Of a stretch of 64,000 nt of DNA, positions 3,578-60,268 are shown one piece after another. Source of the DNA: Gemmatimonadota bacterium (lineage in GTDB: Bacteria > Gemmatimonadota > Gemmatimonadetes > JACCXV01 > JAHWKZ01); assembly GCA_050732935.1 (NCBI GenBank), contig JBOHRW010000217.1, forward strand, positions 398 through 64,397, in the 5' to 3' direction. A program made the translations under genes and the position numbers. The notes beneath the pieces are model-generated. The model had not been told where the DNA came from and searched no databases. It worked only from the letters and a program-made list of their open reading frames with translations. The number at the start of each line of letters is the position of its first letter. The stretch's first letter is position 1.

Positions 3578-3749
3578 CGGATCACCTCTCCGTTGAGGTC
3601 CATGATGACGAACTCGTGGATGCGTACCCGGCTCTCGACGGCCGTGTTCCGACCATCTCAGTAGTAATTATTGTCGGATCTGGTCGGATGAGGTCCATGC
3701 TACTAACGGGTGTCGTTTCCTGAGCGTAAACCACTCTTGGAAAGGGCCT

Positions 3750-5462: not shown

Positions 5463-6599
5463 CTATCCGGTCGTGCCGCGCACGCCCTGCTCGACCTGAT
5501 AGGGCTGATACGTATCGGCCGGCGCGCACAGCGGCAGGTAAGCCTCAGTATAGGGCTGACGCGCTTCGACTCGCACGTAGACCGGAACGCCGTCGTACTC
5601 GCCGATCTGGACGAGCTGATCCATCCCGATCGTGGTCGAGGACCCGAACTTCACCCAGTTCCGTCCGTCGACCGAGATCGTCTCGTTGAAGCGGTACCAG
5701 TCGCGCCCGTCCGCGCAGGCCGCCGCCGGCTCCGGCTCCACGACGATCGGGCAGCCTTCGCTGTCGACCTCCTCGCCGAACGGCGTCTCGGGGCACTGGT
5801 CGCGGTCATCGGGAACGCCGTCCCCGTCCGAGTCCACCGGGACCGGGCAGCCGAAGCTGTCGACGGGCGTGCCGAGCGGCGTATTGGGGCATTGGTCGCG
5901 GTCGTCGTAGACACCGTCGCCGTCAGCGTCGGTCGGGGGCGGTGGCGCCGCCGGCCCGCCACCGAAGAAGAAGGAGATCCCGCCCGAGAGCTCCCAGTTG
6001 TTCTTCCACTCTGTATCGTCCTCGAGCGGTGTGGGGTCCACAGCGTCGATGTCGTCGCGCCAGATCAGGTTGTCGCGCGCGTCGATCCGCAGGGCCCAGG
6101 TGGGATCCTCGGCGTCGTTGTGGACCTTGAGCCCGATGCCGACCGGGATGAGGAGATCGGTCTGGCTTTCATCCTCGTCGTTCACACCTACATCCCCGAG
6201 ACGGGTCGTCGCTCCACCCACACCGCCGGAGAGGAAGAAGTTGGTAATTCCCGCAGAAGGGAAGGTGTAGTCAATCGTTCCACTCCACAGGAAAAGACCG
6301 ATATCGATGTCGTCTGGCTCGGGGTTTGTATCTGTCGGTGGCCTCTCGATCTGATCGGCGAAGACCCAATCGCCGTTGACGCCGATCCCCAAGCCGTTCT
6401 CCCAGTGGCGGGCCAGGCGTAGGCCGGCGAGCACGTCGGTGTCCGTGTTGTCCTCGTCATCATCATCGTCGATGCCGAGGTCGTAGGCGAACGCGCCGCC
6501 GTGAACGTTGAATTCCCAATAGTTGTGCTGGGCCTGCGCCGCGTGTGGCGTGAGAAGCGCGACCAGGGCCCCCAACATGAGTGCCCAAGCGTGTCGCAT
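5463..6599 (-). CDS. outer-membrane beta-barrel protein with TSP type-3 (OmpA-like) Ca-binding repeats and an uncharacterised Cys-containing C-terminal domain (paralog 3)
   Basis: Starts at MRHAWALMLGALVALLTPHAAQA. Barrel ends GGISFFFGGG. It is followed by repeats DADGDGVYDDRDQCPNTPLGTPVDSFGCP and DSDGDGVPDDRDQCPETPFGEEVDSEGCP, then CADGRDWYRFNETISVDGRNWVKFG...GEYDGVPVYVRVEARQPYTEAYLPLC. No OmpA_C domain is present. Confidence 0.75.
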   Translation of the reverse strand: MRHAWALMLGALVALLTPHAAQAQHNYWEFNVHGGAFAYDLGIDDDDDEDNTDTDVLAGLRLARHWENGLGIGVNGDWVFADQIERPPTDTNPEPDDIDIGLFLWSGTIDYTFPSAGITNFFLSGGVGGATTRLGDVGVNDEDESQTDLLIPVGIGLKVHNDAEDPTWALRIDARDNLIWRDDIDAVDPTPLEDDTEWKNNWELSGGISFFFGGGPAAPPPPTDADGDGVYDDRDQCPNTPLGTPVDSFGCPVPVDSDGDGVPDDRDQCPETPFGEEVDSEGCPIVVEPEPAAACADGRDWYRFNETISVDGRNWVKFGSSTTIGMDQLVQIGEYDGVPVYVRVEARQPYTEAYLPLCAPADTYQPYQVEQGVRGTTG

Positions 6600-12490: not shown

Positions 12491-13849
12491 TCAATTCGAT
12501 TCCTCGTCCATGACCGTCAGGATCAGCGTGAGCGTCTCCCGCTCATCCGGGGCCAGGCTGCCCACGGACCACACACCGGTCGCCTGGTCGTAGGCCCCCT
12601 TGCTGGCGGTCGCCGAAGTCAACGCGAGCCGGGGCGGGATCCCCTGAACGAGCTGGACGCCGGTGGCGGTCACCGGTCCACCGTTCCGCACCGTCACGAC
12701 ATAGGCGACGTCGTCCCCGACGGTCGGGGAGTCGTCGCTCACCGAGACCTCGACCCCGAGGTCTGCGCTTTCGGCGGCGAAGGTGACGGTCGCCGTGTCG
12801 TCGATCGTCGCGCCGTTGACGGTCCCGGTGACCGTCGCCGTTCCGGGAGTCGTGATGGAAGTCAGGGTGGCCGTGTAGATGCCATTTCCACGGTCGCTGA
12901 CAGGACCGAGCGTCCCCAAGGTCGTCGACAGGGTGACCGCGTCGCCGCCCGATGCGAGCGGCTCCCCGTTAGGGTCGATCAGCAGGACCGTGATCGTCGA
13001 CGTGCTGGAGCCATTGGCGGGGATCGATGCCGGGTCGGCGGTGATCATGCTGTTCGCTGGCGAAGGGGCGCCCGCGGTGAACTCGACCGTCGCGGTATCG
13101 TCGATGCTCTCTCCATCGACCGTGCCGGTGACGGTGGCTGTGCCGCCCCTAGTCGGCGAGGTGAGGGTGGCGAGGTACGTGCCATCGCCTGCGTCCGAGA
13201 CGGAACCCAGGGTCCCTGAGTCGGTGGACAGGGTGACTGCATTCCCACCCGACGGGAGCGGGTTTCCGGATTCGTCGCGAAGCCGGACGGTGATCGTCGA
13301 CGTGCTCGATCCATCGGCCGGGATCGAGGTGGGGTCGGCGGTGATCTCAGAGGTCGCGCCCGAAGGCGGCCCCGGCTCGTCATCCTCATCGTCATCGTCG
13401 TCATCCTCATCGTCGTCATCCTCATCATCCTCATCGTCGTCATCCACGACGTCGAATGGGGCGCTGGTCGTGCTCGTGAGCCCGTCCGCCGTCGCCTCCA
13501 GAGTGTATCCCGCTCCAGGCTTGCTGACCGAGAGGTTGTCGAACGTGGCCAGGCCGCTCTCGGCGTCGTCATGCTTCCGTCCACCCAGCGTGGCTCCGCC
13601 GGGGTTGGAATGGAGCCCCACATCGATGCGTGCCGTGAATGATGCCACGCGGTTTCCGGATGCATCCACGGCTTCGACCGTGACCGCAGGATCGATGTGC
13701 TCGCCCGCGTCCACATCGGTGGGCTCCTCCACGAAGCGCAGGGCGGTCGCAGTCTGAGCGCGCAGGCCGGAAGCCGGAAGGAGCGCGGCGACGAGGCACC
13801 CGAGGACGAGCGCCGATCGCCCCGGGGGATGGGTCGCCGGGGAAATCAT
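12491..13849 (-). CDS. secreted adhesin-like protein: invasin/Big_1-like Ig repeats, poly-Asp/Glu linker, C-terminal DUF11 domain (cassette B)
   Basis: Signal MISPATHPPGRSALVLGCLVAALLPASGLRA. Two repeats of the form ITADP.SIPA(D/N)GSSTSTITV.L.D..GNPL..GG.AVTLST..GTLG.VSD.G.G.Y.ATLTS. Then DDDDEDDEDDDDEDDDDDDEDDE. C-terminal ...VTVRNGGPVTATGVQLVQGIPPRL...TGVWSVGSLAPDERETLTL (DUF11-like). Confidence 0.7.
   Translation of the reverse strand: MISPATHPPGRSALVLGCLVAALLPASGLRAQTATALRFVEEPTDVDAGEHIDPAVTVEAVDASGNRVASFTARIDVGLHSNPGGATLGGRKHDDAESGLATFDNLSVSKPGAGYTLEATADGLTSTTSAPFDVVDDDDEDDEDDDDEDDDDDDEDDEPGPPSGATSEITADPTSIPADGSSTSTITVRLRDESGNPLPSGGNAVTLSTDSGTLGSVSDAGDGTYLATLTSPTRGGTATVTGTVDGESIDDTATVEFTAGAPSPANSMITADPASIPANGSSTSTITVLLIDPNGEPLASGGDAVTLSTTLGTLGPVSDRGNGIYTATLTSITTPGTATVTGTVNGATIDDTATVTFAAESADLGVEVSVSDDSPTVGDDVAYVVTVRNGGPVTATGVQLVQGIPPRLALTSATASKGAYDQATGVWSVGSLAPDERETLTLILTVMDEESN
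13378..13447 (-). repeat. GAY/GAR trinucleotide simple-sequence tract encoding a 23-residue poly-acidic linker
   Basis: Plus strand reads tcatcctcatcgtcatcgtcgtcatcctcatcgtcgtcatcctcatcatcctcatcgtcgtcatc. It encodes DDDDEDDEDDDDEDDDDDDEDDE within the 12491..13849 gene. Confidence 0.7.
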
Positions 13850-14423: not shown

Positions 14424-16619
14424 CTAATCCGAATCCGGGCCCAGGACGCGGGTCACGATGGTGAGCGTGGCCCGCTCGCCTTCGGCCAGCGCCCCCACGC
14501 TCCAGATCCCCGTTGTCGACACGTATTCTCCCTGACTGGTCGTGGCGGATACGAACTCCAGCCGCGCGGGCAAGGTCTGGGTGATTTCGACCCCCGTGGC
14601 ATGGTCGGGACCCTGGTTGCCGGCCGTCACGACGTAGACCACCTGGTCCCCGATCCCCGGCGTCTCGTCGCTCACCTCGACCACGACCTCCAGGTCCGCG
14701 CTCCCGGCCGCGAACGTCACGGTGGCGGTGTCGGAGATCGAGGCTCCATTGACGGTGCCGCTGATGGTGGCGGTTCCCGGCGCGATGGTGGAAAGAAGGG
14801 TCGCCGTGTACGTCCCGTCCCCGTTGTCCCGCACGGCACCCAGGGACCCGAGCGTGGTCGAGAGGTTCACGTTGTCGCCGCCTGTCGAGAGGAGCACTCC
14901 TTCCGCGTCGCGGAGCTGGACGACGATGCTGGACGTGCTGGCTCCATCCGCGAGGATCGAGACGGGATTGGCGCTGATCGTGCTCGTGGCCGGCGAGGCC
15001 GCGCCGGCGGTGACGGCGAACGTCGCGCTGGTCGCACCCGCCGCCCCCGAGACCGAGAACCCGAGCCGGTAGCCGCCCGCCGATCGGTCGATCCGCAGGT
15101 CGTCGAAAGTCGCGACACCGTTCAGGAGCGGCTCGTTGACATCTCCCTGGAGGTCGGCGCCGGCGGGATTGACCGCCAGTGTGGCCGCCACGTTGCCGGT
15201 GAAGCCGGTCAGGGTGTTGCCGAGGCCGTCCACGACGCGCACGACGACCGGAGGCGTGATGGGCTCGTCGACGGGCGTGTCGGTCGGCTGCTCGTCGACG
15301 ACCAGCGTGGGCTGGCCGACCAGCGCGAACGTGACGGACGCGGTATCCGTGATGTCCGCCCCGTTCACCGTGCCCGAGATGGTCGCCGTGCCGGCCGTGG
15401 TGGCGGAGGTCAGCGTGGCCGTGTACGTGCCGTCCCCGTTGTCGATGTCGGGGCCAAGGGTCCCCGACGTGGTAGAGAGCGAGACGTCGGCTCCGCCACC
15501 GGTCAGGGGGTTCCCGAACGCGTCCCGGAGCTGGACGGTGATCGTCGACGTGCTGCTCCCGTCGGCCGGGATCGTGGTCGGGTCGGCCGTGATCTCCGAC
15601 GTCGCTCCGGAGGGTGCGGCCGGGGTGATCTGGAAAGAGCTGCTCGTCGCTTCCGTGAGCGGCGCCGAAGCGGCCTGGAGCGTGTAGGTCCCAGCCTGCT
15701 GTATCGAGAGGTCGCCGAAGGTCGCCACGCCATCCACTGCGGCCTTGCTGGTCGTGCCCATGAGCGCTCCCCCGGCCGGGCCCGTGGCGATCGACAGCGT
15801 CACCAGGCCGGTGAAGTCCGGGTCCACGTTCCCACCGGCGTTCCTGGCCTCCACGGTCACCGCGGGGGTGATGGTCTGGCCGGCCGCCCTGCTGGTCGGT
15901 TGCTGAGCGAAAGCGAGCTGAGTGGCCGGGGCGACGGTGAACGTGACCGTGGCGTCGTCGTCGAGGACCAGGTTGTCGACCGCGGCGGTCACCGTCGCCG
16001 TCCCGGTAGCCGTCGAGGTGAGGGTGGCGGTGTACGTGCCGTCGCCCCCATCGTCCACCGTGCCCAGCGAGCCGAACGTGGTGGAAAGCACGACGTCGGC
16101 CCCGCCGGTCGTCAGGGGGTTTCCGAACTCATCCCGGAGGAGGACGGTAATCAGGGCGCTGCTCACCCCGTCGGCCGGGATCGAAGTCGGGTCGACCGTG
16201 ATCTCCGACTCCTCGGGGTCCGGGGGGCCGGGAGTGATCTGGAAGGAGGCGCTGGTAGCAGCCGTGAAGTTGTCAGCCGTAGCCAGGAGGGTGTAGGTGC
16301 CGGCCTCGTCGATGTTCAGGTCGCTGAAGGTGGCCGTCTCCAGGACTGTCTGTTGGGCCACGGTTCCGTCGAGCCCCCCGGGGCCCGAGGCGATGCTGAG
16401 CGTTACGGTCACGGGGAGAATGGCGCCCGGTGCGTGGACCACGACGTCCGGCATGATCTGCCCGGCTTCCGTATCGGTCGGCTGTTCATCGAATTCGAGC
16501 GCGATCTGCGCCCTCAGGTCCTTGACGAGCGGGGAGGCGAGCGACGTGATCAGGCAGGCCAGAAGGCCGATCGCGGCGAGGGTCCCCCGCCCCGGGGGTT
16601 GGGTCACCGGGGGAAACAT
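14424..16619 (-). CDS. secreted adhesin-like protein: six alternating Ig-like modules (invasin-like + Big_1-like) and C-terminal DUF11 domain (cassette A)
   Basis: Real start MFPPVTQPPGRGTLAAIGLLACLITSLASP at 16619; the listed 1360-aa ORF continues upstream only as antisense of the OMP gene. Modules of the type QPT...AG..I.P.V.V.A.D..GN...F.G.V.L...GP.G..L.G......GVATF.DL.I..AG.Y.L alternate with ITADP.SIPADGSSTS.ITV.LRD..GNPL.GGG..V.LSTT.G.LG. Ends ...VVYVVTAGNQGPDHATGVEITQTLPARLEF...TGIWSVGALAEGERATLTI. Confidence 0.7.
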   Translation of the reverse strand: MFPPVTQPPGRGTLAAIGLLACLITSLASPLVKDLRAQIALEFDEQPTDTEAGQIMPDVVVHAPGAILPVTVTLSIASGPGGLDGTVAQQTVLETATFSDLNIDEAGTYTLLATADNFTAATSASFQITPGPPDPEESEITVDPTSIPADGVSSALITVLLRDEFGNPLTTGGADVVLSTTFGSLGTVDDGGDGTYTATLTSTATGTATVTAAVDNLVLDDDATVTFTVAPATQLAFAQQPTSRAAGQTITPAVTVEARNAGGNVDPDFTGLVTLSIATGPAGGALMGTTSKAAVDGVATFGDLSIQQAGTYTLQAASAPLTEATSSSFQITPAAPSGATSEITADPTTIPADGSSTSTITVQLRDAFGNPLTGGGADVSLSTTSGTLGPDIDNGDGTYTATLTSATTAGTATISGTVNGADITDTASVTFALVGQPTLVVDEQPTDTPVDEPITPPVVVRVVDGLGNTLTGFTGNVAATLAVNPAGADLQGDVNEPLLNGVATFDDLRIDRSAGGYRLGFSVSGAAGATSATFAVTAGAASPATSTISANPVSILADGASTSSIVVQLRDAEGVLLSTGGDNVNLSTTLGSLGAVRDNGDGTYTATLLSTIAPGTATISGTVNGASISDTATVTFAAGSADLEVVVEVSDETPGIGDQVVYVVTAGNQGPDHATGVEITQTLPARLEFVSATTSQGEYVSTTGIWSVGALAEGERATLTIVTRVLGPDSD

Positions 16620-40850: not shown

Positions 40851-40944
40851 CACGACCTACAGCGGATCGGCTACATTGGCCGTTAATCGCCGAACTGTTG
40901 GACACTACGCCAAATCCGAAATCCCCGCCGGGGACCAGGACCTC

Positions 40945-43050
40945 ATGAACCACAGCCAGATAGTCAGCTTCATCTGGGGTGTCGCGGATCTCATCCGCGA
41001 CACCTTCAAACGCGGCAAGTACCAGGACGTGATCCTCCCGCTCACCGTGCTGCGGCGGCTCGACTGCGTGCTGGCTCCCAACAAGTCGAAGGTCCTAGAG
41101 GTCCAGGCTAAGTACAAGGGCAAGATCGAGAACCTCGACCAGCTGCTCCGGCGCGCCTCGGGCTTCGCCTTCTACAACACCTCCCGCTACGACTTCGAGA
41201 AGCTCCTGGGCGACGCGCCGCACATCGCGCAGAACCTCCGCAACTACATCGCCAGCTTCAGCCCCAACATGCGGGAAGTACTTGAGAAATTCGACTTCAA
41301 CAACACCATCAGCAAGCTCGACGAGGCGGGACTGCTCTTCCTTGTCGTGCAGAAATTCGGCGAGGTGAATCTCCACCCGGACGTCATCGACAACCCGACG
41401 ATGGGCACCATCTTCGAGGAGCTGATCCGCAAGTTCAACGAGGCCTTGAACGAGAACCCGGGCGAGCACTTCACTCCTCGCGACGTGGTCCACCTGATGG
41501 TGGATCTTCTGATCGCAGGAGACGAGCAACGGCTACGCAAAAAGGGCGTGATCCTAACGGTATACGATCCGTGCTGCGGCTCGGGAGGGATGCTGACGAT
41601 CACGAAGGAGCACATCAAGGCAGGCGAGTGGTGCGGGCGAGACCTCCGGAAGCCGCCCGTAAACCCGGGGGCTGACGTCCATCTCTTCGGGCAGGAAGTG
41701 AACCCAGAGACCTGGGCGGTCAGCAAGTCCGATCTCTACATGAAATCGGTCGACGGCCGCGACGCGGAGAATATCGCGTACGGGAGCACCCTCTCGAACG
41801 ATCGTCATGCGGGCACGGCCTTCGACTACCTGATCGCCAACCCGCCCTACGGCAAGGACTGGAAACGCGACGAGGTCGCCGTACGGGCCGAGCATGAGCG
41901 GGGCGCCGCGGGACGCTTTGCCCCAGGGCTCCCACGGATCAGCGACGGCCAGCTCCTGTTCCTCCTGCACATGCTGGCGCACATGAAGGAGCCCAAGCAG
42001 GGCGGTTCGCGCGTCGCCATCATCATGAACGGCTCTCCGCTCTTCACCGGAGACGCCGGGAGCGGCGAGAGCGAGATCCGCCGCTGGATCCTCGAGAACG
42101 ACCGCCTCGAGGCGCTGATCGCGCTTCCCGAGCAGCTCTTCTACAACACGGGGATCGCCACGTATGTCTGGGTGCTCACCAACCGGAAGCCTCCCGAGCG
42201 GCGCGGCAAGGTCCAACTCATCGACGCCACCCGCTTCTGGACTTTGCTCCGAAAGAGCCTAGGGGCCAAACGGAGGGAGATCCCATTTGAGAAGAAGGAG
42301 GACATCCTCGCGCTGCTCCAGAACTTCGCGGACGGCGAGACCCGCAAGATCGCGGAGGACGGCGAGGAGCGCGAGCTCGTGGTGAGCCGGATCTATCGCA
42401 CGACCCACTTCGGCTTCCGCAAGATCACGGTCGAGCGACCGCTCAAGCTGGACTTCCAGGCGACGCCCGAACGGATCGCGCGACTCGATGAGGAACGCCC
42501 CTTCAAGAATCTCGCCGTCTCGCGCAAGAAAGGGGCGGCCAAGGCCAAGGAGGAGGAGGAAGGGCGCGCCCAGCAAGCCGCCATTCGCGAGCTCCTGGCG
42601 AACCTTCCGGGCGAACTCTACCTGGATCGAACCGAGTTCGAGGCGGTCCTCGGGAAGGCGGCCCGGAAGGCCAACCTGAAGCTCGCCGCTCCGATCAAGA
42701 GGACCATTCTCTCGGCACTCTCCGAGCGCAACGAGAGCGCCGAGATCTGCCGCGACAAGGACGGAAATCCGGAGTCCGACACTGAGCTTCGGGACACCGA
42801 GAGCGTTCCCCTCTCCGAGAGCGTTGAGGCCTTTTTCGAGCGCGAGGTAAGGCCCCACGTCCAGGACGCGTGGATCGACATCAGCCGGCGCGACCCGCAG
42901 GACGGAGAAGTCGGCATCGTGGGTTACGAGATCAACTTTAACCGCTACTTCTACGAGTACCGCCCACCGCGGTCGCTGGAGGAGATCGAGGCCGACATCC
43001 AGCACGTGGAGAGAGAGATCGTCTCGATGCTGCGGGAGGTCGCGGGGTAG
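40945..43050 (+). CDS. hsdM: type I restriction-modification system, DNA methyltransferase subunit M (long form)
   Basis: HsdM N-terminal domain, FTPRDVVHLMVDLL, VYDPCCGSGGML, LIANPPYGKDW (NPPY). Confidence 0.9.
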   Translation: MNHSQIVSFIWGVADLIRDTFKRGKYQDVILPLTVLRRLDCVLAPNKSKVLEVQAKYKGKIENLDQLLRRASGFAFYNTSRYDFEKLLGDAPHIAQNLRNYIASFSPNMREVLEKFDFNNTISKLDEAGLLFLVVQKFGEVNLHPDVIDNPTMGTIFEELIRKFNEALNENPGEHFTPRDVVHLMVDLLIAGDEQRLRKKGVILTVYDPCCGSGGMLTITKEHIKAGEWCGRDLRKPPVNPGADVHLFGQEVNPETWAVSKSDLYMKSVDGRDAENIAYGSTLSNDRHAGTAFDYLIANPPYGKDWKRDEVAVRAEHERGAAGRFAPGLPRISDGQLLFLLHMLAHMKEPKQGGSRVAIIMNGSPLFTGDAGSGESEIRRWILENDRLEALIALPEQLFYNTGIATYVWVLTNRKPPERRGKVQLIDATRFWTLLRKSLGAKRREIPFEKKEDILALLQNFADGETRKIAEDGEERELVVSRIYRTTHFGFRKITVERPLKLDFQATPERIARLDEERPFKNLAVSRKKGAAKAKEEEEGRAQQAAIRELLANLPGELYLDRTEFEAVLGKAARKANLKLAAPIKRTILSALSERNESAEICRDKDGNPESDTELRDTESVPLSESVEAFFEREVRPHVQDAWIDISRRDPQDGEVGIVGYEINFNRYFYEYRPPRSLEEIEADIQHVEREIVSMLREVAG

Positions 43051-43177
43051 CTCGTACCGAAACCTCTGCACCACCAGCGCCGGTGTCTGCGTGTGTTCCC
43101 CCTCCACGGGTCCGTGCCAGTGGACACAAAATGTAGGGGATTGCGCCTAACCCCCGACGCTTTGTATCATCCACCCC

Positions 43178-43774
43178 GTGAACAAGCGGGATCAAGCCCT
43201 GGCGATCATCGAGGAAAGGGGCCTCGTCCGCCCAAAAGAGCTCGAGGCCCGGGGTGTGTCGCGCGCGCTGCTCTATCGTCTGGTTCGCGAGGGGCTCGTC
43301 GAGAGGCAGACGCGGGGCGTGTACGCTCTGGCGCGCCACACACCTACAGCGGAGCATACACTAGCGCAGGTGGCGAAGCGCGTTCCGGCGGGCGTGTTCT
43401 GCCTACTCACCGCTCTACGCTTCCACGGCCTCACCACCCAGGCGCCCGCCGAGGTGTGGATCGCGCTACCCGAGAAGGCGCGGATCCCCCGACTCGACTA
43501 CCCCCGGCTGCGGGTCGCGCGCTTCTCGGGGGCCTCGCTCACGGAAGGGGTCGAGACGCACCAGGTCGAGGGCGTCGAGGTGCGCGTCTACTCGCCGGCG
43601 AAGACCGTGGCCGACTGTTTCAAGTACCGCAAGAAGATCGGCATCGATGTGGCCGTCGAGGCGCTTCGCGACTTCACCCGACTGTATCGCGGGGGCGCGA
43701 CCGATCTGGCTCGGTTCGCTCGCATCTGCCGGGTCACCCGCGTGATGCAGCCCTACCTGGACGCCATCGCATGA
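43178..43774 (+). CDS. abiEi: AbiEi-family antitoxin (type IV TA, N-terminal wHTH)
   Basis: GTG start. MNKRDQALAIIEERGLVRPKELEARGVSRALLYRLVREGLVERQTRGVYAL is an AbiEi_4-like N-terminus. 4-nt ATGA overlap with the following NTase gene. Confidence 0.75.
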   Translation: MNKRDQALAIIEERGLVRPKELEARGVSRALLYRLVREGLVERQTRGVYALARHTPTAEHTLAQVAKRVPAGVFCLLTALRFHGLTTQAPAEVWIALPEKARIPRLDYPRLRVARFSGASLTEGVETHQVEGVEVRVYSPAKTVADCFKYRKKIGIDVAVEALRDFTRLYRGGATDLARFARICRVTRVMQPYLDAIA

Positions 43775-44724
43775 ATCCCACCAAGCGGAACATCGCCGCT
43801 TCGGTCGCTGCGCGCCTGCTCAACGAGGCCCGACGTACTGGTGACGATTACCAGACCCTGCTCACAGCGTACGCGTTCGAGCGGTTCCTGTACCGCTTGG
43901 GCCTCTGCGAACTGCGCGATCGTTTCGTGCTCAAGGGCGCCATGCTCCTCCGCCTGTGGTCGGACAATCCGTACCGTGCAACCCGCGACCTGGACCTCCT
44001 GCGGACAGGCGACGGATCGTTTGATGCCATCCGGGCAGACCTCCGGACCATCTGCACGGTTCCGGTGGACCCCGACGGCATCGCCTTCGAAGTCGATTCC
44101 ATTCGTGTCGAGGCTATTCGGGCCGAGGACGAGTTTGCCGGTACCCGCGCGACGCTGCTTGCGCGTTGTGGCTCCGCGCGCTTGTCCCTGCAGGTGGACA
44201 TGGGCCTCGGCGATGCCGTTTGGCCGCCTCCCCAGCCCATCGTCTATCCCTCGCTGCTCGACTTTCCGGCACCCGAGGTGCTTGCGTACCCGCGCGAGGC
44301 GGTCGTGGCGGAGAAGCTGGAGGCGCTGGTGGTCCTCGGCGACCGCAACAGCCGGATCAAGGATTTCTTCGACCTGCACCACCTCGCGAACCACTTCGCC
44401 TTCGATCGAGGGACGTTGGCCGATGCTGTGCGTCGAACCTTTGCCAGACGCGCCACACCCATTCCGGCCGAAGCGCCGATTGGTCTCACTCGCGCATACT
44501 GGGAGAACCCCTCACGCCCAGCTCAGGTGCGCGCCTTCGCTCGGCGTTCAGGTCTAGAGATACCGGAGGACCCCGGTCACGAGCTGGCAGACCTCGTCGG
44601 CGCGTTCCTCCTGCCGATACTGGACGATCTCCGACGGGGCGCCGAGGAGACTGGATCGTGGGCTGCCGGGGGACCCTGGCGGCTGATCACGCATGCCAGG
44701 CAAGAAAGCCAAGCCGATGTCTGA
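43771..44724 (+). CDS. abiEii: AbiEii/AbiGii-family nucleotidyltransferase toxin (DUF1814)
   Basis: FVLKGAMLLRLWSDNPYRATRDLDLL (NTase motif of DUF1814). 318 aa. Lies directly after abiEi. Confidence 0.75.
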   Translation: MNPTKRNIAASVAARLLNEARRTGDDYQTLLTAYAFERFLYRLGLCELRDRFVLKGAMLLRLWSDNPYRATRDLDLLRTGDGSFDAIRADLRTICTVPVDPDGIAFEVDSIRVEAIRAEDEFAGTRATLLARCGSARLSLQVDMGLGDAVWPPPQPIVYPSLLDFPAPEVLAYPREAVVAEKLEALVVLGDRNSRIKDFFDLHHLANHFAFDRGTLADAVRRTFARRATPIPAEAPIGLTRAYWENPSRPAQVRAFARRSGLEIPEDPGHELADLVGAFLLPILDDLRRGAEETGSWAAGGPWRLITHARQESQADV

Positions 44725-46054
44725 GGCGCTCGCGCAGATCAGGGGGGCGCGACCCCGGCGCTACCGTCCGTACACGAGGTGCAAAGATTCCGGCGTCGAT
44801 TGGCTTGGGCAGATCCCGGTGCATTGGGAAGTGAAGCGGCTCAAGTTTATTGCGCCAGCAACCATGGGTAAGGTAGACGTCAAGCCGGATGACGCGGTCT
44901 ATATCGGCCTCGAGCATGTCGAGTCATGGACGGGTCGCCTGCTACTCGATAACCAACCCGATGTCGTAGACAGCGTCGTGACATCGTTCAAGGCAGGCGA
45001 CGTGCTCTTCGGTAAACTTCGTCCCTATCTGGCTAAGGCGGCTCGACCAGACTTTGACGGAGTCTGTACAAGCGAGATTCTACCGCTTCGGCCGGCAGCC
45101 CGGTGCTCTCAAAGCTACTTGATGTACTGCCTTCTGAGTGCACCGCACATTCGGTTCCTCGACTCCCTTACCTATGGCACCAAGATGCCGCGACTCAGCC
45201 CCGCGCAGATCGGAAACAGCTTCGTGCCAGTTCCCCCCCTTGAGGAGCAGCACGCTGTTGCCGGTATCCTCGACCGCGAAACATCTAGGATCGACGGGCT
45301 CGTGGCGAGGAAGGAGCGGCTGATCGAGCTGCTCCAGGAGAAGCGGACTGCCCTCATCACCCACGCCGTCACCCGCGGCCTCGACCCGAGCGTCCAGCTT
45401 ATGGACTCCGGCATTGAGTGGGTGGGGGAGATTCCGGAGCATTGGGAGGTAAGCCGCATCAAATGGGTTGCTCGGATGGAAAGCGGGCATACACCGGACA
45501 AGAAGATCGAAGCTTACTGGCGTGATGGAGATGTGCCGTGGCTCTCACTCAATGACACTGGATTCCTGAAGGATCACGACTACATATCTGAGACGGCTCA
45601 CTATACGAATGAGCTGGGGCTGAGGAATTCCTCCGCGCGCCTCCTTCCTGCGGGAGCCGTAGTCTTCTCGCGCGACGCAACGATCGGACTGTGCGCGATT
45701 ACTGAACGGCCAATCGCGGTATCGCAGCACTTTATTGCCTGGCTATGCGGGGGGAGGCTTCTGCCGGAGTACCTGCTGCGAGTCTTTGATGCAATGCAGG
45801 GTGAGCTTGAGAGGCTAACGATGGGCGCGACTCTACGAACGATTGGAATGCCTCATGTAAAGGAGCTAGCAACTCCAATCCCGCCCGTGTCAGAGCAAGA
45901 GCAGATCGTCGCTGTCATCCGCACCGAAACCGCCAAGATCGATGCCCTCATCGTCAAGGTCCGCAAAGCCATCGACCTTCTCAAGGAGTTCCGCACCGCC
46001 CTGATTTCCGCAGCCGTCACAGGCAAGATCGACGTCCGCGATGGGGTACCGTGA
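44693..46054 (+). CDS. hsdS: type I restriction-modification system specificity subunit S (two target-recognition domains)
   Basis: Two TRD halves, each followed by a conserved coiled-coil region ([39 protein letters not shown]...; [38 protein letters not shown]). Confidence 0.85.
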
Positions 46055-47097
46055 CCTTCTCCCCGCGCTTCTCGATCTCCAACGCCAGCGCCGAAGCGCT
46101 GACGCAAATCGAGCGGGCGCGGGGGTTTCTCGAGGCAGCGAGGCTCTCGGAGGATTGGCTCGCCTCCATGCGCTCGCGCGCCTTCGTCCTCGAAGCTCAC
46201 CACACGACCCACATCGAGGGGACCCGGCTGACCCTCGAGCAGTCCGAGCAGCTCCTCGCGGGCCATGAGGTGCCGGAAACCGATCCAGAGGATGCGCGCG
46301 AGCTCCTCAACTACCGTGAGGCCTTCGAGTTCGTGAGCGACTGGCTCAAGGATGGCGAGGCCATCACGGAGGGTCTGATCCGAGAGATCCACAGACGTCT
46401 TGTCGCCGGCGTACGTGGGGGGTCGGCGGCTCCCGGAGAGTATCGCCGCGTGCAGAACTACATCGTGAACATGGCCGCGGGCGAGACGGTCTACGAGCCG
46501 CCTCCCGCCCACGACGTACCGATCCTGATGCGGGAGCTGGTCACCTGGCTGAACGATCCGGGTCAGGTCCACCCGGTGCTTGCCAGCGGGATGGCGCAGT
46601 TCCAGCTCGTCCACATCCATCCGTTCCTCGATGGAAATGGCCGGACTTCGCGGCTCCTCTCCACGATCTGTCTCTATCGAAGCGGCTACGACTTCAAACG
46701 GCTCTTCACGATCAGCGAGTACTACGACCGCGATCGCGCCGCGTTCTATCGCGCTCTCCAGGGCGTGCGAGAGGCCGGCATGGATCTGACAGGCTGGCTC
46801 GACTTCTATACCCAGGGGCAGGCCACGCAGCTCGACGAGGTCAAGGCGCTTGGCGAGCGTGCGATTCGGCGGGACGTGCTCGTCCGCGAGCATGGGCTCT
46901 CGGAGCGCCAAGGGCTAGCCCTTGGGCACGTGATGGAGAACGGGTCGCTGACGATCAAGGACTACGAGGCGCTCTGTCCGGGCGTCAGCCGGCGTACTTT
47001 GCAGAGAGATTTGAAAGGGCTTGTGCAACGGGCTCTCTTGAAGACCAAGGGCGCCACAGACCGTCTTCAATACGTTGGAGGCAAGTCACTTACGTGA
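46051..47097 (+). CDS. fic: Fic/DOC-family protein (AMPylator-like)
   Basis: [16 protein letters not shown] (HPFx[D/E]GNGR). GTGA overlap with the hsdS stop. Confidence 0.85.
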
Positions 47098-47155
47098 ACT
47101 TGCGACAAACTTGCGGCAGAACTTGCGACAGACTCGCGACGGGACTTGCGACATG
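47098..47155 (+). repeat. tandem direct repeat array, five copies of ACTTGCGACA with 11-12 bp period, filling the fic-hsdR intergenic space and ending on the hsdR ATG
   Basis: acttgcgacaa / acttgcggcaga / acttgcgacag / actcgcgacggg / acttgcgacATG. Confidence 0.7.
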
Positions 47156-50100
47156 ACCCAAAGAGTCTCAGAGCGCGCCTTTGAGGAGGCGATCGAGTGC
47201 GCCCTCCTCGAGCACGGGCCCGACGCCTGTCCAGGCGACGCCACGGCGGTCCGGGAGCCACCGCCGACCTTCGACGGCGATCCTCTGCCGGGGGGCTACC
47301 GGAAGCAAAGGCCCGAGTACTACGACCGCGCGCTCTGCCTGATCACGAAGGACGTGATCGACTTCCTCCTGGCCACCCAGCCGAAAGAGTGGGAGAGGCT
47401 CCGCCAGCATCACGGTTCGGAGGTTAAGGACCGCTTTCTGTCGCGCCTCTCGCGCGAGATCGGCCGGCGGGGCGCGCTCGATGTTCTGCGGAACGGCGTC
47501 AAGGACTCGGGCTGCAAGTTCCGCCTGGCGTTCTTCCGCCCAGCGAGCGGCCTGAACGAGGAGACGCGGCGGCTCTACGCCGCCAACCTCTTCTCGATCG
47601 TCCGTCAGCTCCGCTACAGCGAGCGGGGAGAACCGAGCCTCGACCTCGTGCTCTTCCTGAACGGGATCCCCCTCTTCACGGCCGAGCTCAAGAACCCGCT
47701 GTCGGGCCAGGACGTCGAGGACGCGATCCGGCAGTACCGGACCGATCGCGACCCGCGCGAGCCGCTCTTCGCCTACGGCCGCTGCCTCGCCCACTTCGCG
47801 GTGGATCCGGAGCTGGTCTTCGTGACCACCCATCTCCGGGGATCCGCGACCCGCTTCCTGCCCTTCAACCAGGGGCGCTTCGGCGGCGCCGGAAATCCCC
47901 CCGTGCCGCCGACACGAAAAGGGTACGCGACCGCGTACCTCTGGGAGCGGACCTGGGCGCGTGACAGCGTCCTCGACCTCGTCCGCCAGTTCATCCACGA
48001 GGTCGAGGAGGAGGACAAGCGCTCGCTGATCTTCCCGCGCTACCAGCAGCTGGACTGCGTCCGTCGGCTCGTGCGTCACGCCCGGAATCACGGCACCGGG
48101 CAGCGCTACCTGATCCAGCACTCGGCCGGGAGCGGGAAGAGCTTCACGATCGCCTGGCTCGCTCACCAGCTCTCGACCCTCCACGACGCCGAGGACCGGC
48201 GCGTCTTCGACTCGATCGTGGTGGTGACGGACCGCCTGGTCCTCGACCGCCAGCTCCAGCGGACGGTGCGCCAGTTCGAGCAGACCCTGGGGGTGGTCGA
48301 GAACATCGACCAGACCTCGCGCCAGCTCAAGGAGGCCCTGGAGTCGGGCCGGACGATCATCGTGACGACACTACAGAAGTTCCCGGTGATCGCCGAGCAG
48401 ATCGAGCAGCTCCGGGGCCAGCGCTTCGCAGTGGTCCTGGACGAGGCGCACTCCTCGCAGACTGGGGAGAGCTCGAAGAGCCTGAAGCAGGCGCTGACCG
48501 CCGGCAGCCTCGAGGAGGCGGAAGCGGAGGAGGCCGGTGCCGGGACGCCCGAGGAGGAGATCGAGGACGCGGTTCACGAGGAGATCCGAAGGCGCGGGCC
48601 CCAGCCCAACCTCTCGACCTTCGCGTTCACGGCGACCCCCAAGCCGAAGACCCTGGAGCTCTTCGGCCGCAAGCGCCCGGACGGGCAGTTCGAGCCCTTC
48701 CATCTCTACTCGATGCGTCAGGCCATCGAGGAGGGCTTCATTCTGGACGTCCTCGCGAACTACACCACCTATAAGACCTATTGGCGGCTCCTCAAGAAGA
48801 TCGAGGACGACCCCCGCTACGACCGGCGGAAGGCCCAGTACCTGCTCAAGTCGTTCGTCGACCTCCATCCCCACGCCATCCAGGAGAAGATCCGCATCAT
48901 GGTGGATCATTTCGCCGGAAAGGTGCAGGGGGAGATCAGCGGGAGGGCCAAGGCGATGATCGTGACGCGGTCTCGGCTCCACGCGGTTCGCTACAAGCGG
49001 GCGCTGGACCGCTATCTGAAGGAGAAGGGCCACATGTGGAAGAGCCTGGTGGCGTTCTCGGGGACGGTCGAGGACGGGGGGAAGAGATACACGGAATCGG
49101 GCATGAACTCCGCCGGCGAGGATCACGTGATCGGCGAGCGCCAGACGGCCCTCGAGTTCGGAAAACCCGAGTGCCGGTTCCTGGTGGTCGCTAACAAGTT
49201 CCAGACGGGCTTCGACCAGCCGCTCCTCCACACGATGTACGTGGACAAGAAGCTGGGCGGGGTGAACGCGGTCCAGACCCTCTCGCGCCTCAACCGGACG
49301 CACCCGGGCAAGACGGGCACCATGGTGCTCGACGTCGCCAACGAGGCCGAGGAGATCCGGAAGGCCTTCGAGCCGTACTACGAGACGACGCTGCTGTCCG
49401 AGGAGACGGATCCGAACCTGCTCTACGAGGTCCAGGGGCGGCTCCTGGGGTTCGGCGTGTACACCGAGGTCGATGTCGCGGCGTTTGCGCGGGTGTACTT
49501 CGACTCTAAGACCACCCAGGACCAGATCTACGCGGCGCTGGAGTCGATCCGCGAGCGGTTCGGAGAGATCACCCCGGAGGAACAGGCCGGCTTCTGGGGC
49601 CAGGTCACCGACTACGTCCGGCTCTACGCCTTTCTTTCCCAGGTCCTGACCTTCGCCGACCCTGACCTCGAGAAGCTCTACGTCTTCGCCCGTTATCTCC
49701 GGCGGCTCCTGCCGGCCGACCCTGAGGAACTCCCCCGTGAGGTGCAGCAGAACATCGACATGGAGTCCTACCGCATCCAGGAGATGAGCCGCGGCAGGAT
49801 CAAGCTCGAACGCCAGGCCGGGAAGCTGGGTCCCATGCGCAGCAAGCCGGGCCACGGGCGCGGGGAGGAAGAACTCGAGCCCCTTTCCCAGATCATCGCC
49901 GAGCTGAACGAGCGGTTTGGGCTGAACCTCGGGCCCGAGCACCGCATCGCCCTGGAGCGGATTCGCGATGCTCTTGACGAGGACGCCGGCCTCGACGCCA
50001 GTGCGCGGGTCAACACGCGGGAGAACGTGCGTCTCACGTTCGACCCCAAGGTCGAAGACAAGATCCAGGAGATCGTCGACACCAACTTCGAGCTCTACAA

Positions 50101-50719
50101 GCGGATCACCGACGACCAGGCCTTCGGCCGGGCGCTCAAGAACCTCCTCTTCGACGACTACATCCGCCGCCATCGTCGTGTGGAGGAGTTGCTGAAGCTC
50201 CAGGAGTCCAAGACGCTGGAGTTCAAGTCGAGCCTGCGCTGGAACCTGAAGGAGGACTGCAAGGACGACCGCCACGTCACCCACGCGGCCCTCAAGACGA
50301 TCGCCGCCTTTCTGAACACTGAGGGCGGTGACCTCGTGATCGGTGTGGCCGATGACCGCACCGTCGTTGGCATCGAGCCCGACCGGCTCGAGAACGACGA
50401 CAAGTTCATGCGCCACCTGGCCCAGGTGGTCAGGAACGGTCTCGGGGTTCGCGCCGGGACCTGCATCGATCCCAAGACTCAGATCGTGGATGGGAAGACG
50501 GTCTGCCTGGTGAGCTGTCAGCGGAGCCCGGAGCCTGTATTCCTGAAGTGGAAGGGGCTGGAGAAGTCCAAGAGCGGGGACCTCTTCGTGCGCAGCGGCC
50601 CCAGCACAATCCCGCTGGAAGGCGATGACGTCGAGGAGTTCATCACTACGAGATTTCGTGCGACGGTCGGGCCAGGCGCAGGGATAGCACCAGTTGACGA
50701 ACCTCGGACACCAGCATAG
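47153..50719 (+). CDS. hsdR: type I restriction enzyme R subunit with C-terminal AlbA_2 (Schlafen-like) domain
   Basis: HsdR N-terminal nuclease and SF2 helicase motifs (QHSAGSGKSFT, DEAHSSQ, ...). The C-terminal 170 aa, ESKTLEFKSSL...HAALKTIAAFLNTEGGDLVIGVADDRTVVGI, matches the AlbA_2 core. Confidence 0.9.
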   Translation: MTQRVSERAFEEAIECALLEHGPDACPGDATAVREPPPTFDGDPLPGGYRKQRPEYYDRALCLITKDVIDFLLATQPKEWERLRQHHGSEVKDRFLSRLSREIGRRGALDVLRNGVKDSGCKFRLAFFRPASGLNEETRRLYAANLFSIVRQLRYSERGEPSLDLVLFLNGIPLFTAELKNPLSGQDVEDAIRQYRTDRDPREPLFAYGRCLAHFAVDPELVFVTTHLRGSATRFLPFNQGRFGGAGNPPVPPTRKGYATAYLWERTWARDSVLDLVRQFIHEVEEEDKRSLIFPRYQQLDCVRRLVRHARNHGTGQRYLIQHSAGSGKSFTIAWLAHQLSTLHDAEDRRVFDSIVVVTDRLVLDRQLQRTVRQFEQTLGVVENIDQTSRQLKEALESGRTIIVTTLQKFPVIAEQIEQLRGQRFAVVLDEAHSSQTGESSKSLKQALTAGSLEEAEAEEAGAGTPEEEIEDAVHEEIRRRGPQPNLSTFAFTATPKPKTLELFGRKRPDGQFEPFHLYSMRQAIEEGFILDVLANYTTYKTYWRLLKKIEDDPRYDRRKAQYLLKSFVDLHPHAIQEKIRIMVDHFAGKVQGEISGRAKAMIVTRSRLHAVRYKRALDRYLKEKGHMWKSLVAFSGTVEDGGKRYTESGMNSAGEDHVIGERQTALEFGKPECRFLVVANKFQTGFDQPLLHTMYVDKKLGGVNAVQTLSRLNRTHPGKTGTMVLDVANEAEEIRKAFEPYYETTLLSEETDPNLLYEVQGRLLGFGVYTEVDVAAFARVYFDSKTTQDQIYAALESIRERFGEITPEEQAGFWGQVTDYVRLYAFLSQVLTFADPDLEKLYVFARYLRRLLPADPEELPREVQQNIDMESYRIQEMSRGRIKLERQAGKLGPMRSKPGHGRGEEELEPLSQIIAELNERFGLNLGPEHRIALERIRDALDEDAGLDASARVNTRENVRLTFDPKVEDKIQEIVDTNFELYKRITDDQAFGRALKNLLFDDYIRRHRRVEELLKLQESKTLEFKSSLRWNLKEDCKDDRHVTHAALKTIAAFLNTEGGDLVIGVADDRTVVGIEPDRLENDDKFMRHLAQVVRNGLGVRAGTCIDPKTQIVDGKTVCLVSCQRSPEPVFLKWKGLEKSKSGDLFVRSGPSTIPLEGDDVEEFITTRFRATVGPGAGIAPVDEPRTPA

Positions 50720-50728
50720 ACGGAGAGA

Positions 50729-51415
50729 ATGCCAAAACTACGCAGTCTCGAAGCCATCTTCCGAGAGCTCAACGCTGAAGGGATCCGCTACCTGGTGGCC
50801 GGGGGAGTCGCCGTCAACGTCCACGGCTATCAGCGAATGACACAGGACCTTGATCTCATCGTGGATCTCGCACGGGAGAACGTGCTGGGTGCCCTAAGGG
50901 CGCTTGGAAAGCTGGGGTACCGGCCGGTGTTACCGGTCGAGGCGGAGGATTTCGCGGATCCCGCAAAGCGGCGAGCTTGGGTGGAAACGAAGAATCTGCA
51001 GGTCTTCTCGCTGACCAGCGAGGAGCACCAGGACACGACCGTCGACCTGTTTGCAGGCGATCCCTTCTCAGGTCGGGACGAGTACGCCCGCGCCGTCCTG
51101 GTGGAGATTGCTCCTGCCCTCGAGGTGCCCTTCGTGCACTTGGCCACCCTCATCGCCATGAAGGAGGGGACGGGACGCGCCAGAGATTCGGATGACGTCG
51201 AGCACCTTCGTGAAATCCAGACGGATTTGGAAGCTGGACCGGACAGGGTCAGGGAGACGGGGGGCTGGGTAGCCGCCACCTGGGGGGGAAGCCGCCGCGA
51301 GCAACTGCGGAGAGCGCTTCGGCTGAGTGCATCCGAGCGGCTCGAGGGGCTGGAGGCCCTGACGGAGACGAGCGAGCGGCTGAAAGGAATCGCCAGGCCG
51401 GATGGCGGCCCATGA
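50729..51415 (+). CDS. minimal nucleotidyltransferase-fold protein, paralog c
   Basis: IRYLVAGGVAVNVHGYQRMTQDLDLIVD. 228 aa. Begins 10 nt after hsdR stop. 14-nt overlap with the downstream deaminase gene. Confidence 0.55.
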   Translation: MPKLRSLEAIFRELNAEGIRYLVAGGVAVNVHGYQRMTQDLDLIVDLARENVLGALRALGKLGYRPVLPVEAEDFADPAKRRAWVETKNLQVFSLTSEEHQDTTVDLFAGDPFSGRDEYARAVLVEIAPALEVPFVHLATLIAMKEGTGRARDSDDVEHLREIQTDLEAGPDRVRETGGWVAATWGGSRREQLRRALRLSASERLEGLEALTETSERLKGIARPDGGP

Positions 51416-51950
51416 AACCGTCGGGAGGGCCGTGACCAGCAGCGCTCAACATCGTGAACGGCTACGGGAGCTCGTCGAATTCACGGCGTCCTCGTTGGAC
51501 ACCGACTTCCCCTCACCGTTCGGATCCGCGGTCTACGACGAGCGAAGTGGCGGACTGATAGCTCAGGCCTACGACACCGTCATCGAAGCGCGCGACCCCA
51601 CGAACCACGCGGAGATCAACGCCATTCGCGAAGCCACGAAGAAGCTCCGATCGCTGTCGCTTCGGGGATGCATCCTGTACAGCACCTGCGAACCATGCCC
51701 CATGTGCATGTCCGCCAGCATCTGGGCCGAGATCGATACGGTGGTCTTCGGCGCGTCGACATTGGAAGACGCCGATCGGTACTGGCCGCAGGCATCGGAC
51801 ATGTCACCGCTCGATCTCGTGGCCCGCATGCGCCGGGAGCCGCGATGCGGGCTCGTACCTCACGTCGAACGCCGCCTCTGTCAGGACCTCTTCCGGCGAT
51901 GCGACGAGGCGCGAAGGGAACGCGGCCTGGAGCTTCCTCCCCACCGCTGA
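51402..51950 (+). CDS. CMP/dCMP-type zinc deaminase (TadA/nucleoside deaminase-like)
   Basis: HAEINAIREA...CEPCPMC zinc-binding signature. Confidence 0.75.
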   Translation: MAAHETVGRAVTSSAQHRERLRELVEFTASSLDTDFPSPFGSAVYDERSGGLIAQAYDTVIEARDPTNHAEINAIREATKKLRSLSLRGCILYSTCEPCPMCMSASIWAEIDTVVFGASTLEDADRYWPQASDMSPLDLVARMRREPRCGLVPHVERRLCQDLFRRCDEARRERGLELPPHR

Positions 51951-59754: not shown

Positions 59755-60268
59755 GTGAGCGCCACCCCCGTCGTCTCGTGCGCCAACTGCGGTCGCCGGT
59801 TCGCGGGCCGCTGGTGCCCGAGGTGCGGCCAAGAAGCCTCCGAAGTCCGGCGCCCGTTCTCGCAGATCGTGGTCGAGTTCCTGGGTGATTTTCTGGCCTT
59901 CGACGCCCGCATCCGGCGCACGGCGGTCCCGCTCTTCCTGCGCCCGGGCTACCTCACCCGGCAGTACGTGACCGGACATCGGGCGCCTTACGTGCCGCCT
60001 CTCCGGCTCTACGTCTTTCTTCGCGGTCTTCGCTTTCTTCGCGGTCTTCGCTTTGGCGAACGGGGGCCCGATCCGCATCGTGGCGGGCGGGCAGTCCGGC
60101 GACGGCATCGTGAGCTTCGACTACGGTTCAGGGGCGGAGGTCTCCCCGGTCTACGAGGAACGCTGGTGGAAGCTGGCGCTGAAGTTCGTGGCGCTGGGCC
60201 TTCTGTACATCGTCCTAGGGGGGGTGGTTGTGGGCAGCGTTGCCTTCCTCTCGGTCCTCTTCCTCTGA
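59755..60268 (+). pseudogene. DUF3667-like zinc-ribbon membrane protein; frameshift at about 60015-60020 (pseudogene or assembly indel)
   Basis: VSCANCGRRFAGRWCPRCGQEA zinc ribbon, ...TGHRAPYVPPLRLYVF. The continuation in the +2 frame is hydrophobic: FFAVFAFFAVFALANGG...WWKLALKFVALGLLYIVLGGVVVGSVAF. The shift lies next to an 18-bp tandem duplication TTTCTTCGCGGTCTTCGC x2. Confidence 0.45.

Follow-up and report, generated by a model that had tools for sequence, protein, structure and literature searches.

The DNA analysed here is a stretch of 64,000 nt from a Gemmatimonadota bacterium (hereafter the window), which carries a type I restriction-modification (R-M) operon with a fic gene lodged between hsdS and hsdR; our subject is the tandem array of short direct repeats that separates fic from hsdR. 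The genes and features of the locus are listed in Table 1. Because the start of fic overlaps the stop of hsdS, fic and its array lie seamlessly inside the operon. The array occupies all 55 nt from the fic TGA (47095-47097) to the hsdR ATG (47153-47155), and the A of this ATG is the final base of copy 5. It consists of five direct copies of a 10-mer within positions 47098-47153, spaced by 11/12/11/12 bp, which amounts to 2.5 units of a 23-bp super-period. Three of the five copies are exact (ACTTGCGACA), one has a single mismatch (ACTTGCGGCA) and one has two (ACTCGCGACG). Endings that resemble the possible copy 0 of Table 1, namely CTTACGTGA or CTTGCGTAA, occur in relatives.

Table 1. Genes and sequence features around the fic 3' array (positions in the window)
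Feature	Position	Strand	Remarks
hsdM	40876-43050		first listed gene of the operon
AbiEi/AbiEii pair	43093-44724		between hsdM and hsdS
hsdS	44693-46054	+	stop overlaps fic start
fic	46051-47097	+	348 amino acids; GTG start overlaps hsdS stop by 4 nt
Winged helix-turn-helix at the C-terminus	46903-47079	+	predicted, from AlphaFold2 and alignment to the C-terminal domain of 7xux
Recognition helix, residues 314-326	46990-47028	+	predicted; same across all repeat classes
Wing loop GATDRL, residues 334-339	47050-47067	+	predicted; class co-varies with repeat class
Copy 0 (possible), ACTTACGTGA	47088-47097	+	degenerate, 7/10, weak; spans the fic stop codon; read from the sequence
Copy 1, ACTTGCGACA	47098-47107	+
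Copy 2, ACTTGCGGCA	47109-47118	+
Copy 3, ACTTGCGACA	47121-47130	+
Copy 4, ACTCGCGACG	47132-47141	+
Copy 5, ACTTGCGACA	47144-47153	+	register kept in L008, L010, L011, L212, L213, L215, L216
GGGA, putative Shine-Dalgarno-like element of hsdR	47141-47144	+	spacer preceding copy 5; lies 8 nt ahead of the ATG
hsdR, type I restriction subunit	47153-50719	+	Pfam; NCBIfam hsdR
AbiEii-like nucleotidyltransferase, then cytidine/dCMP deaminase-family protein	50729-51950		after hsdR

Tandem Repeats Finder (TRF) detected the array with periods of 11, 12 and 23 and scores of 61-81, and its five copies are direct and regularly spaced near the helical repeat, as in an operator- or iteron-like array. With one mismatch allowed, the whole window contains five matches to the motif, four of them in the array, against 2.9 expected window-wide. 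At a match of 8/10 or better the array is the sole motif cluster on either strand of the window, save for an adjacent pair in opposite orientations at 15101/15108, which was taken for chance; no second copy was found upstream of hsdM. An independent Logan assembly of the same locus (L001) gave an identical array sequence, which argues that the array is not an assembly artefact. The array is confirmed as real and far from chance, and the first-pass annotation was right in describing five copies at 11-12 bp that fill the fic-hsdR gap and overlap the hsdR start.

The product of fic matches the Pfam families Fic and Fic_N. Its active-site motif (HxFx(D/E)GNGRxxR, at H190-201) and its inhibitory motif ((S/T)xxxE(G/N), here T52-T-H-I-E56-G57) are both invariant in 42 aligned homologues, and since the latter is N-terminal the protein is a class II Fic. 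The PADLOC model for the SoFic anti-phage system matches it with an E-value of 4.7e-62; the NCBIfam SoFic equivalog gives 52.7 bits against a cut-off of 550. These scores would place it within the broad SoFic-like group and speak against orthology with S. oneidensis SoFic. The best match in the PDB, the Fido protein 7xux, aligns from residue 11 to 340, including its C-terminal DNA-binding domain. In the AlphaFold2 model the predicted local distance difference test (pLDDT) values are 90-95 for residues 280-348; the model is poor elsewhere (mean pLDDT of 62). The predicted fold of that C-terminal part is three helices (285-297, 302-308 and 314-326) and a beta-hairpin (strands 330-333 and 340-343), i.e. 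a winged helix-turn-helix (wHTH), and residues R314, R315, L317, Q318, R319 and D320 of its recognition helix are invariant in the family. Sequence and model together make the window protein a predicted SoFic-type class II AMPylase with a C-terminal winged helix.

A search made with the Fic protein only, in one genome per species, returned at least 571 relatives. The best 80 loci (67-78% Fic identity) were analysed; they come from Planctomycetota, Chloroflexota, Acidobacteriota, Spirochaetota, Desulfobacterota, Nitrospinota, Bacillota, one archaeal metagenome-assembled genome and others. In almost all of them fic is followed by 3-7 boxes of ACTTGCGACA or a variant of it, which begin 0-13 nt past the fic stop or overlap it. 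Run without any motif input, TRF picked up repeats with a period of 10-13 or 21-25 at the stop codon of fic in 68 of the 80 loci, with period 23 the best-scoring one in 40 of these 68; by motif scan, boxes were still present in most of the twelve loci that it missed. As controls, the same program gave 1 out of 76 at 300 nt further downstream and 0 out of 80 upstream of fic. The repeat is thus not absent from homologous loci, in which the first-pass annotation had called for a motif search. Elsewhere in the 80 loci, motif matches were at background (about 1 per 8 kb per strand), and the motif scan revealed no clusters upstream of fic or elsewhere apart from a few relic arrays. The array-bearing subfamily reaches down to at least 57% Fic identity.

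The array belongs to fic, not to hsdR. The hsdS-fic-hsdR arrangement is present in only about 30 of the 80 loci; in the remaining ones the next gene is often convergent and unrelated (MgtE, dihydrolipoamide (E2) acyltransferase, histidine kinase, aminotransferase or IS1634 transposase). Since the array follows fic where no hsdR exists, often beside convergent housekeeping genes, an hsdR control element as such, which had been suggested at first, is not supported. That suggestion also coupled the array to the upstream Fic or AbiEi proteins: the evidence points to Fic and its C-terminal wHTH, and the AbiEi part finds no support, AbiEi being missing from most loci with an array.

Among the loci in which hsdR does come next, seven besides the window, from six distinct relatives (L212/L213, L215 and L216 at 78-83% Fic identity, L008, L010 and L011 at 74-75%), all have exactly five boxes and exactly 55 nt, with the hsdR ATG inside the last box and, 8-9 nt from it, a preceding spacer reading GGGA, GGAG, AGGGA or AGGA. 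This spacer is purine-rich only in relatives with hsdR next, not in those where hsdR is missing, and it is plausibly the Shine-Dalgarno (SD) element of hsdR. Such a fixed register, kept in spite of saturated synonymous sites, suggests a constraint involving hsdR and is an argument for an operator or attenuator specific to hsdR, to which Fic, AbiEi or some other regulator from the island would bind; a distant Fic gene (L204, see below) in which direct repeats of about 11-12 bp abut the start codon goes the same way. We consider this explanation unlikely: in about 50 of the 80 Fic loci an array is present without hsdR, in the class B loci with hsdR (see below) array and hsdR are 40-130 nt apart with a separate SD in between, the candidate regulator AbiEi is seldom there, and neither a motif copy upstream of hsdM nor a promoter-like site in or near the array was found. 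For the latter, both strands of 46500-47500 were scanned for promoters and terminators, and no sites were returned, an antisense promoter inside the array included. A further locus (L214, 83% identity), where a FitA/PIN pair comes next, has five boxes and a relic ATGACC of the hsdR start, which indicates that the module can leave the R-M operon together with its array.

The same loci bear on the proposal that the array lies in frame and could add or remove NLRQ-like units at the N-terminus of HsdR, or act as a phase-variable simple-sequence repeat. The frame of hsdR is open through the array back to a TTG at 47075, and between distant loci the number of copies varies from 3 to 7. The motif contains no stop codon in any frame, however, so that an open frame is meaningless here, and the HsdR N-terminus (M-x-x-x-VSERAFEEAIE) aligns from the same ATG in loci of class B with their unrelated upstream sequence, which argues that the array is not translated; in all relatives hsdR starts at the ATG that follows the array. 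The constancy of five copies and 55 nt at 74-83% Fic identity, in the window as in the seven loci, argues against a slippage switch, and so do the imperfection of the copies, the identity of the independent assembly and the lack of a promoter-like site. Neither half of the proposal survives, and we regard a phase-variable or coding role as extremely improbable.

The conservation of the array was measured on 36 genome loci (630 pairs) selected by copy 1 only, so that copies 2 and 3 are unbiased. Mean identity over the 630 pairs was 0.75 for Fic amino acids and 0.41, i.e. near saturation, for four-fold third positions; it was 0.75 for positions +1 to +33 of the array and 0.27 for the flank from +61 to +100. 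Information content was 1-2 bits per base in copies 1-3, about 0.5-0.8 in copies 4-5 and about 0.1 past +57. For copy 1 it was 1.4-2.0 bits per base, with 0.8 at the first base, in 37 genome loci which were themselves chosen by copy 1. Strong purifying selection with a fixed 23-bp phasing is thereby shown. Even-numbered copies are more degenerate than odd-numbered ones throughout the family; the array therefore looks like a succession of roughly 23-bp units in which a strong box is paired with a weaker one.

Several classes of box were found, and they go with the class of the wing. In class A, the wing is of the TN type (..EG-x-TN-x-L-x-Y), the box is ACTTGCGACA and the spacing is 11/12. In class B, the wing is ..RGTGPTDPTRHY (PTDPT), the box is AGCTGTGACA and the spacing is 10/13; wing and box match in 29 out of 29 loci, and the fic reading frame enters the first box and uses its TGA. 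Class C has the box CTTGCGCCA with a spacing of about 11/12, and its wing is not cleanly defined. In class D, a G-x-TH wing is matched with the box TTT(G/A)CGACA in 4 loci out of 4. The super-period of about 23 bp is constant across classes despite the different inner split, which fits a protein unit rather than sequence drift. A Glu-to-Arg change in the wing that would track the change from GACA to GCCA boxes was considered and set aside as not clean, since the RRGSTN wing occurs with mixed arrays. One of four relatives on viral contigs (L210, an AT-rich IMG/VR contig) carries the array in an AT-rich form, TTTTACGACA three times, in which only the ACGACA core is kept.

On the Fic core (residues 1-280) these classes are interleaved, and for 19 of the 80 loci the closest core relative belongs to another class. 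The core of L036 (class B) is 96% identical to that of L037 (class A), versus 86% to the nearest class B locus; similarly, L007 (B) is at 93% to L011 (A), L065 (B) at 92% to L003 (A) and L052 (D) at 96% to L041 (A). The interleaving of classes on near-identical cores implies that wing, tail and array were exchanged as one module several times. Hybrid arrays were revealed by the motif scan in nine loci. In the five of them that were read (L007, L012, L013, L026 and L028) the boxes nearest to the gene match the wing, and the further ones, sometimes accompanied by a relic C-terminal tail, belong to a displaced allele. The matching of wing and array classes has the pattern of a protein-DNA specificity pair, which we take as supportive, not decisive.

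Arrays were also sought in metagenomes with the exact pattern ACTTGCGACA-N13-ACTTGCGACA, and at least 120 loci were found. Among the 120 listed, a Fic gene lies directly upstream in 51, remnants or pseudogenes of Fic in 22, and no trace of Fic was detected in 44. The 22 remnants are 5'-truncated genes of which the last 30-180 codons are left, frameshifted genes, or genes with internal deletions. Five independent internal deletions (L163, L125, L201, L082 and L101) have varied 5' end points and a single 3' junction, just before (E)GATN; what they leave is a short open reading frame and the array. As to the cause of this junction, a box hidden in the G-A-T-N wing codons (GCGAC) was rejected, the Ala codons being unbiased (GCG 14, GCC 12, GCA 10 and GCT 10).

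About 25 of the 44 loci without Fic are near-identical sequences from digesters. There varied defence genes (a type III CRISPR module, an HNH protein that precedes a 1563-residue protein which we guess, from its first 60 residues, to be Cas12-like, and others) come before the array, of which either the whole or only copies 3-5 are left, and behind it lies a conserved block, about 210 nt long, that includes a terminator-like hairpin. We read these arrays as relics of allele turnover at defence hot spots. An intact Fic with its array followed by the same block was found in four loci (L041, L056, L063 and L097). The block, which is present in digester and Desulfobacterota-like contigs (L095, L096, L088, L105, L119, L122, L132, L138, L140, L155, L187 and L200, and also L052), contains ..GGGAAATCGACATTGACGCCGCTTCCGGTCCGCCGGGAACGG.., then the hairpin, then ..GGTTAACGGCGGGAGA..ATGAAGAGGGTTGCCCATGGGGAACC; both its flanks are variable, identity ends abruptly after MKRVAHGEP, and no Rfam family matches it. 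Two other arrays lie behind a different gene. In L109 (array at 6415), a protein that resembles a PIN/VapC toxin in its sequence ends 2 nt before a three-box array. In L091 (array at 3601), a member of a different Fic-wHTH subfamily (411 residues, 33% identity, MarR-like C-terminus) ends 12 nt before the array, and an inverted copy of the box comes after it.

Such exchanges and relics raise the question of whether the repeats mark, and serve as, a boundary for the exchange of fic cassettes and neighbouring defence genes. The swaps of wing and array between near-identical cores, the hybrid arrays with relic 3' tails of displaced alleles downstream of the current ones (L012, L013 and L007), the many 5'-truncated remnants that retain the array, the junction shared by the five deletions and the variable genes bordering the digester arrays would all agree with this. 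Yet the loci have no recombinase, transposase or integrase consistently in their neighbourhood, the swaps are explained by ordinary homologous recombination in the conserved DNA coding for the third helix, the codons at the deletion junction show no constraint at the DNA level, and a simple breakpoint would not need three to five phased boxes conserved base by base. A recombination or mobility site is accordingly, in our opinion, very improbable.

The explanation that we favour, and hold to be probably correct, is that the array is a cognate multi-site DNA element for the winged helix of Fic, along which several molecules would sit side by side. The gene and its array would then form a two-part module, a protein and a cis-acting DNA, whose parts would move and recombine together. 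In each box, the invariant YGACA would be read by the recognition helix (RRTLQRDL), itself invariant, and the variable 5' part by the variable wing loop, which would also set the spacing within a pair. Pairs of boxes would make up the unit of about 23 bp, and several Fic molecules would line up at the 3' end of their own gene. The first-pass annotation had already likened the repeats to an iteron- or operator-like array for cooperative binding; purifying selection, the fixed 23-bp super-period and the co-variation with the wing support this, the binding itself being an inference.

DNA binding by relatives is on record. In Yersinia pseudotuberculosis, the C-terminal domain of CccR, a class II Fic, recognises a pair of inverted 10-bp boxes (N26) within the promoter of its own gene; CccR represses itself and AMPylates FtsZ (PMC9755527). 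The window Fic shares with CccR the N-terminal inhibitory helix, the Fic core and the C-terminal winged helix. Instead of two inverted promoter boxes 26 bp apart, there are here 3-7 direct boxes at a spacing of 11/12 bp, at the 3' end of the gene. We discarded an autoregulatory operator of the CccR type, as all copies are direct, the array is 3' of fic, an upstream repeat occurs in none of the 80 loci and fic overlaps hsdS. Binding of DNA by CbFic2 stimulates AMPylation and, through dimerisation, deAMPylation (PMC10628234). SoFic AMPylates EF-Tu and needs dimerisation, and only its dimer binds DNA, the fragment used being from upstream of the gene (bioRxiv 10.64898/2026.07.09.737422). The toxicity of E. 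coli Sofic requires contact of the C-terminal domain with the catalytic domain (PMC12249575). By the PADLOC model the window protein resembles the SoFic proteins; SoFic was assayed only on DNA from upstream of its gene, and none of the papers on these enzymes describes a 3' array of direct repeats. Literature searches for the motif, and for SoFic together with direct repeats, returned nothing relevant and no description of such a 3' array. Binding sites for Fic-wHTH proteins as such were therefore known; what appears to be new is a tandem direct array for such a protein, located at the 3' end of its gene and co-varying with its wing.

As to what binding would achieve, the adjacency to the stop codon, the dependence of relatives on DNA and dimerisation, and the lack of a conserved downstream target make us prefer control or tethering at the protein's own locus. 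By analogy with these relatives, the array may hold or condition a toxic enzyme where it is made, which we put forward tentatively as the most likely consequence, although the odds are somewhat against it. In the lineage of the window, where the last box carries the SD-like element and the ATG of hsdR, bound Fic would in addition be a roadblock to transcription entering hsdR; such an effect is possible and would be secondary.

The array could instead act as RNA, either as a platform occluding the SD and AUG of hsdR or as an antitoxin for Fic of the type III toxin-antitoxin kind. The units of ToxI, which are 36 nt long and lie upstream of the toxin gene, form pseudoknots and are cleaved by ToxN, an RNase toxin. 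A short tandem array beside a toxin gene is common to both systems, and the fic array is transcribed with its gene, keeps a constant orientation, starts at the stop codon and, in this lineage, contains the SD and AUG of hsdR. Here, however, the units have 10-12 nt, which is too short for pseudoknots like those of ToxI, they are downstream, and the toxin is a Fic AMPylase, not an RNase. RNA folding of 47080-47175 gave no stable or unusual structure (z = -0.79); Rfam searches up to an E-value of 10 returned only three chance-level matches for this region of the window and, for eight related loci, none at the gathering level. On these grounds a type III antitoxin RNA was rejected. All characterised relatives, moreover, use the wHTH on double-stranded DNA. 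One lead that would suit an RNA is 'AS1', 47 codons just downstream of E. coli Sofic, which neutralises its toxicity and from which no protein could be purified (PMC12249575). A Citrobacter plasmid Fic, tried as a route to E. coli Sofic and AS1, turned out to be a different, 383-residue protein. Altogether, an element acting at the RNA level has little likelihood.

A bolder version of the DNA-binding explanation would make fic and its 3' array a pair akin to toxin and immunity, with the array as a cis DNA cofactor that captures newly made Fic next to its gene and tethers or allosterically silences the AMPylase. Loss, damage or titration of the array DNA upon phage infection would free Fic and lead to a shutdown of translation. 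On this view, the classes of wing and array would amount to specificity groups comparable to those of immunity or incompatibility, and the relic downstream arrays would resemble orphan immunity modules. We give this version a low probability.

Repeat arrays beside the gene of the protein that binds them are found in F sopB-sopC, R1 parC/ParR, pBtoxis tubC/TubR and the plasmid Rep iterons, which measure about 22 bp; among these binders TubR has a winged helix, and centromere and iteron systems have discrete groups of protein and site specificity. Like them, the fic array is made of direct repeats in tandem, spaced by about one or two helical turns, and adjoins the gene of the presumed binder; unlike them, it has an enzyme toxin as its putative binder and chromosomal defence islands as its context. 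A plasmid iteron or partition centromere was excluded since there is no Rep, ParA/ParB, ParM/ParR or TubZ partner, the neighbours being hsdM, AbiEi/AbiEii, hsdS, fic and hsdR. Control by a C protein and C boxes was excluded too: there is no small Xre-type controller gene, and the repeats are direct and come after an enzyme of 348 residues. The place of fic between hsdS and hsdR also recalls the prr locus, in which the anticodon nuclease PrrC, a latent toxin targeting translation, sits between type I hsdS and hsdR as a second line of defence and is silenced by protein contact with EcoprrI. We know of no cis DNA repeat array at the prr locus and, unlike PrrC, about half of the Fic modules are outside R-M operons.

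Several points weigh against the array being the DNA partner of Fic. The arrays without an intact Fic mean that it can persist, and perhaps act, without a neighbouring fic. None of five distant SoFic-like plasmid genes inspected (29-35% identity) has a 3' array, so the feature is confined to one subfamily. Classes A and C are not cleanly separated, and under 70 nt lie between wing and array, a distance at which physical linkage alone could produce a perfect association. From a symmetric Fic dimer one would expect a preference for inverted repeats, such as CccR has, rather than for direct ones. Finally, what binding would achieve is drawn entirely from analogy.

Some of these five distant Fic-wHTH genes have repeats of their own at another place. 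In L204 (Thioflavicoccus mobilis plasmid pTHIMO01), at least six TGGGTG(T) direct repeats, spaced by about 11-12 bp, are located about 100 nt upstream of the Fic ATG and run into this start codon. In two cyanobacterial plasmids (L202 and L205), TATTAACGAAA occurs twice upstream of the Fic gene. Direct or repeated boxes thus seem common in the Fic-wHTH class, the 3' position seeming special to the array-bearing subfamily. A second Fic-wHTH paralogue (about 409 residues, about 35% identity) stands beside the main Fic in the R-M operon of L007 (7381-8610) and L029 (3579-4808); neither of these two has a repeat array of its own.

How a toxic AMPylase of the SoFic type stays silent and then switches on has been called open (PMC12249575; bioRxiv 10.64898/2026.07.09.737422). 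An enzyme whose own wing is matched by a conserved DNA partner in cis would offer a direct experimental handle on this control. SoFic-type proteins are counted as single-gene anti-phage systems; if our explanation is true, there is more to the 'single-gene' system than its gene, namely a second, non-coding component missed by catalogues that are based on genes. For type I R-M, one lineage appears to have built the start signals of hsdR into the putative binding array of an embedded toxin, which opens the way to a possible cross-talk between two defences.

Some minor features of the loci may be added. The type I R-M operon of the window is crowded with further toxin-like modules (AbiEi/AbiEii, the AbiEii-like nucleotidyltransferase and the deaminase). 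HsdR has an extra C-terminal Schlafen/AlbA_2 domain (window 50204-50617, residues 1018-1155, Pfam E-value of 7e-19), and since HsdR relatives at 74-80% identity match the full 1188 residues, this fusion is conserved. In four class B loci with hsdR (L021, L061, L062 and L019), the spacer after the array contains the hairpin CTCCTC-GAA-GAGGAG, about 15-45 nt upstream of the hsdR ATG, which would pair the SD of hsdR with an anti-SD; L021 and L061 have it in perfect form, L062 and L019 in a weaker one. Two other tandem repeats were seen in the window: a TCATCC/TCGTCA-type repeat at 13377-13445, with periods of 6-24 and a score of up to 100, and a perfect 18-bp repeat at 60015-60054 (CTTTCTTCGCGGTCTTCG, 2.2 copies, score of 80).

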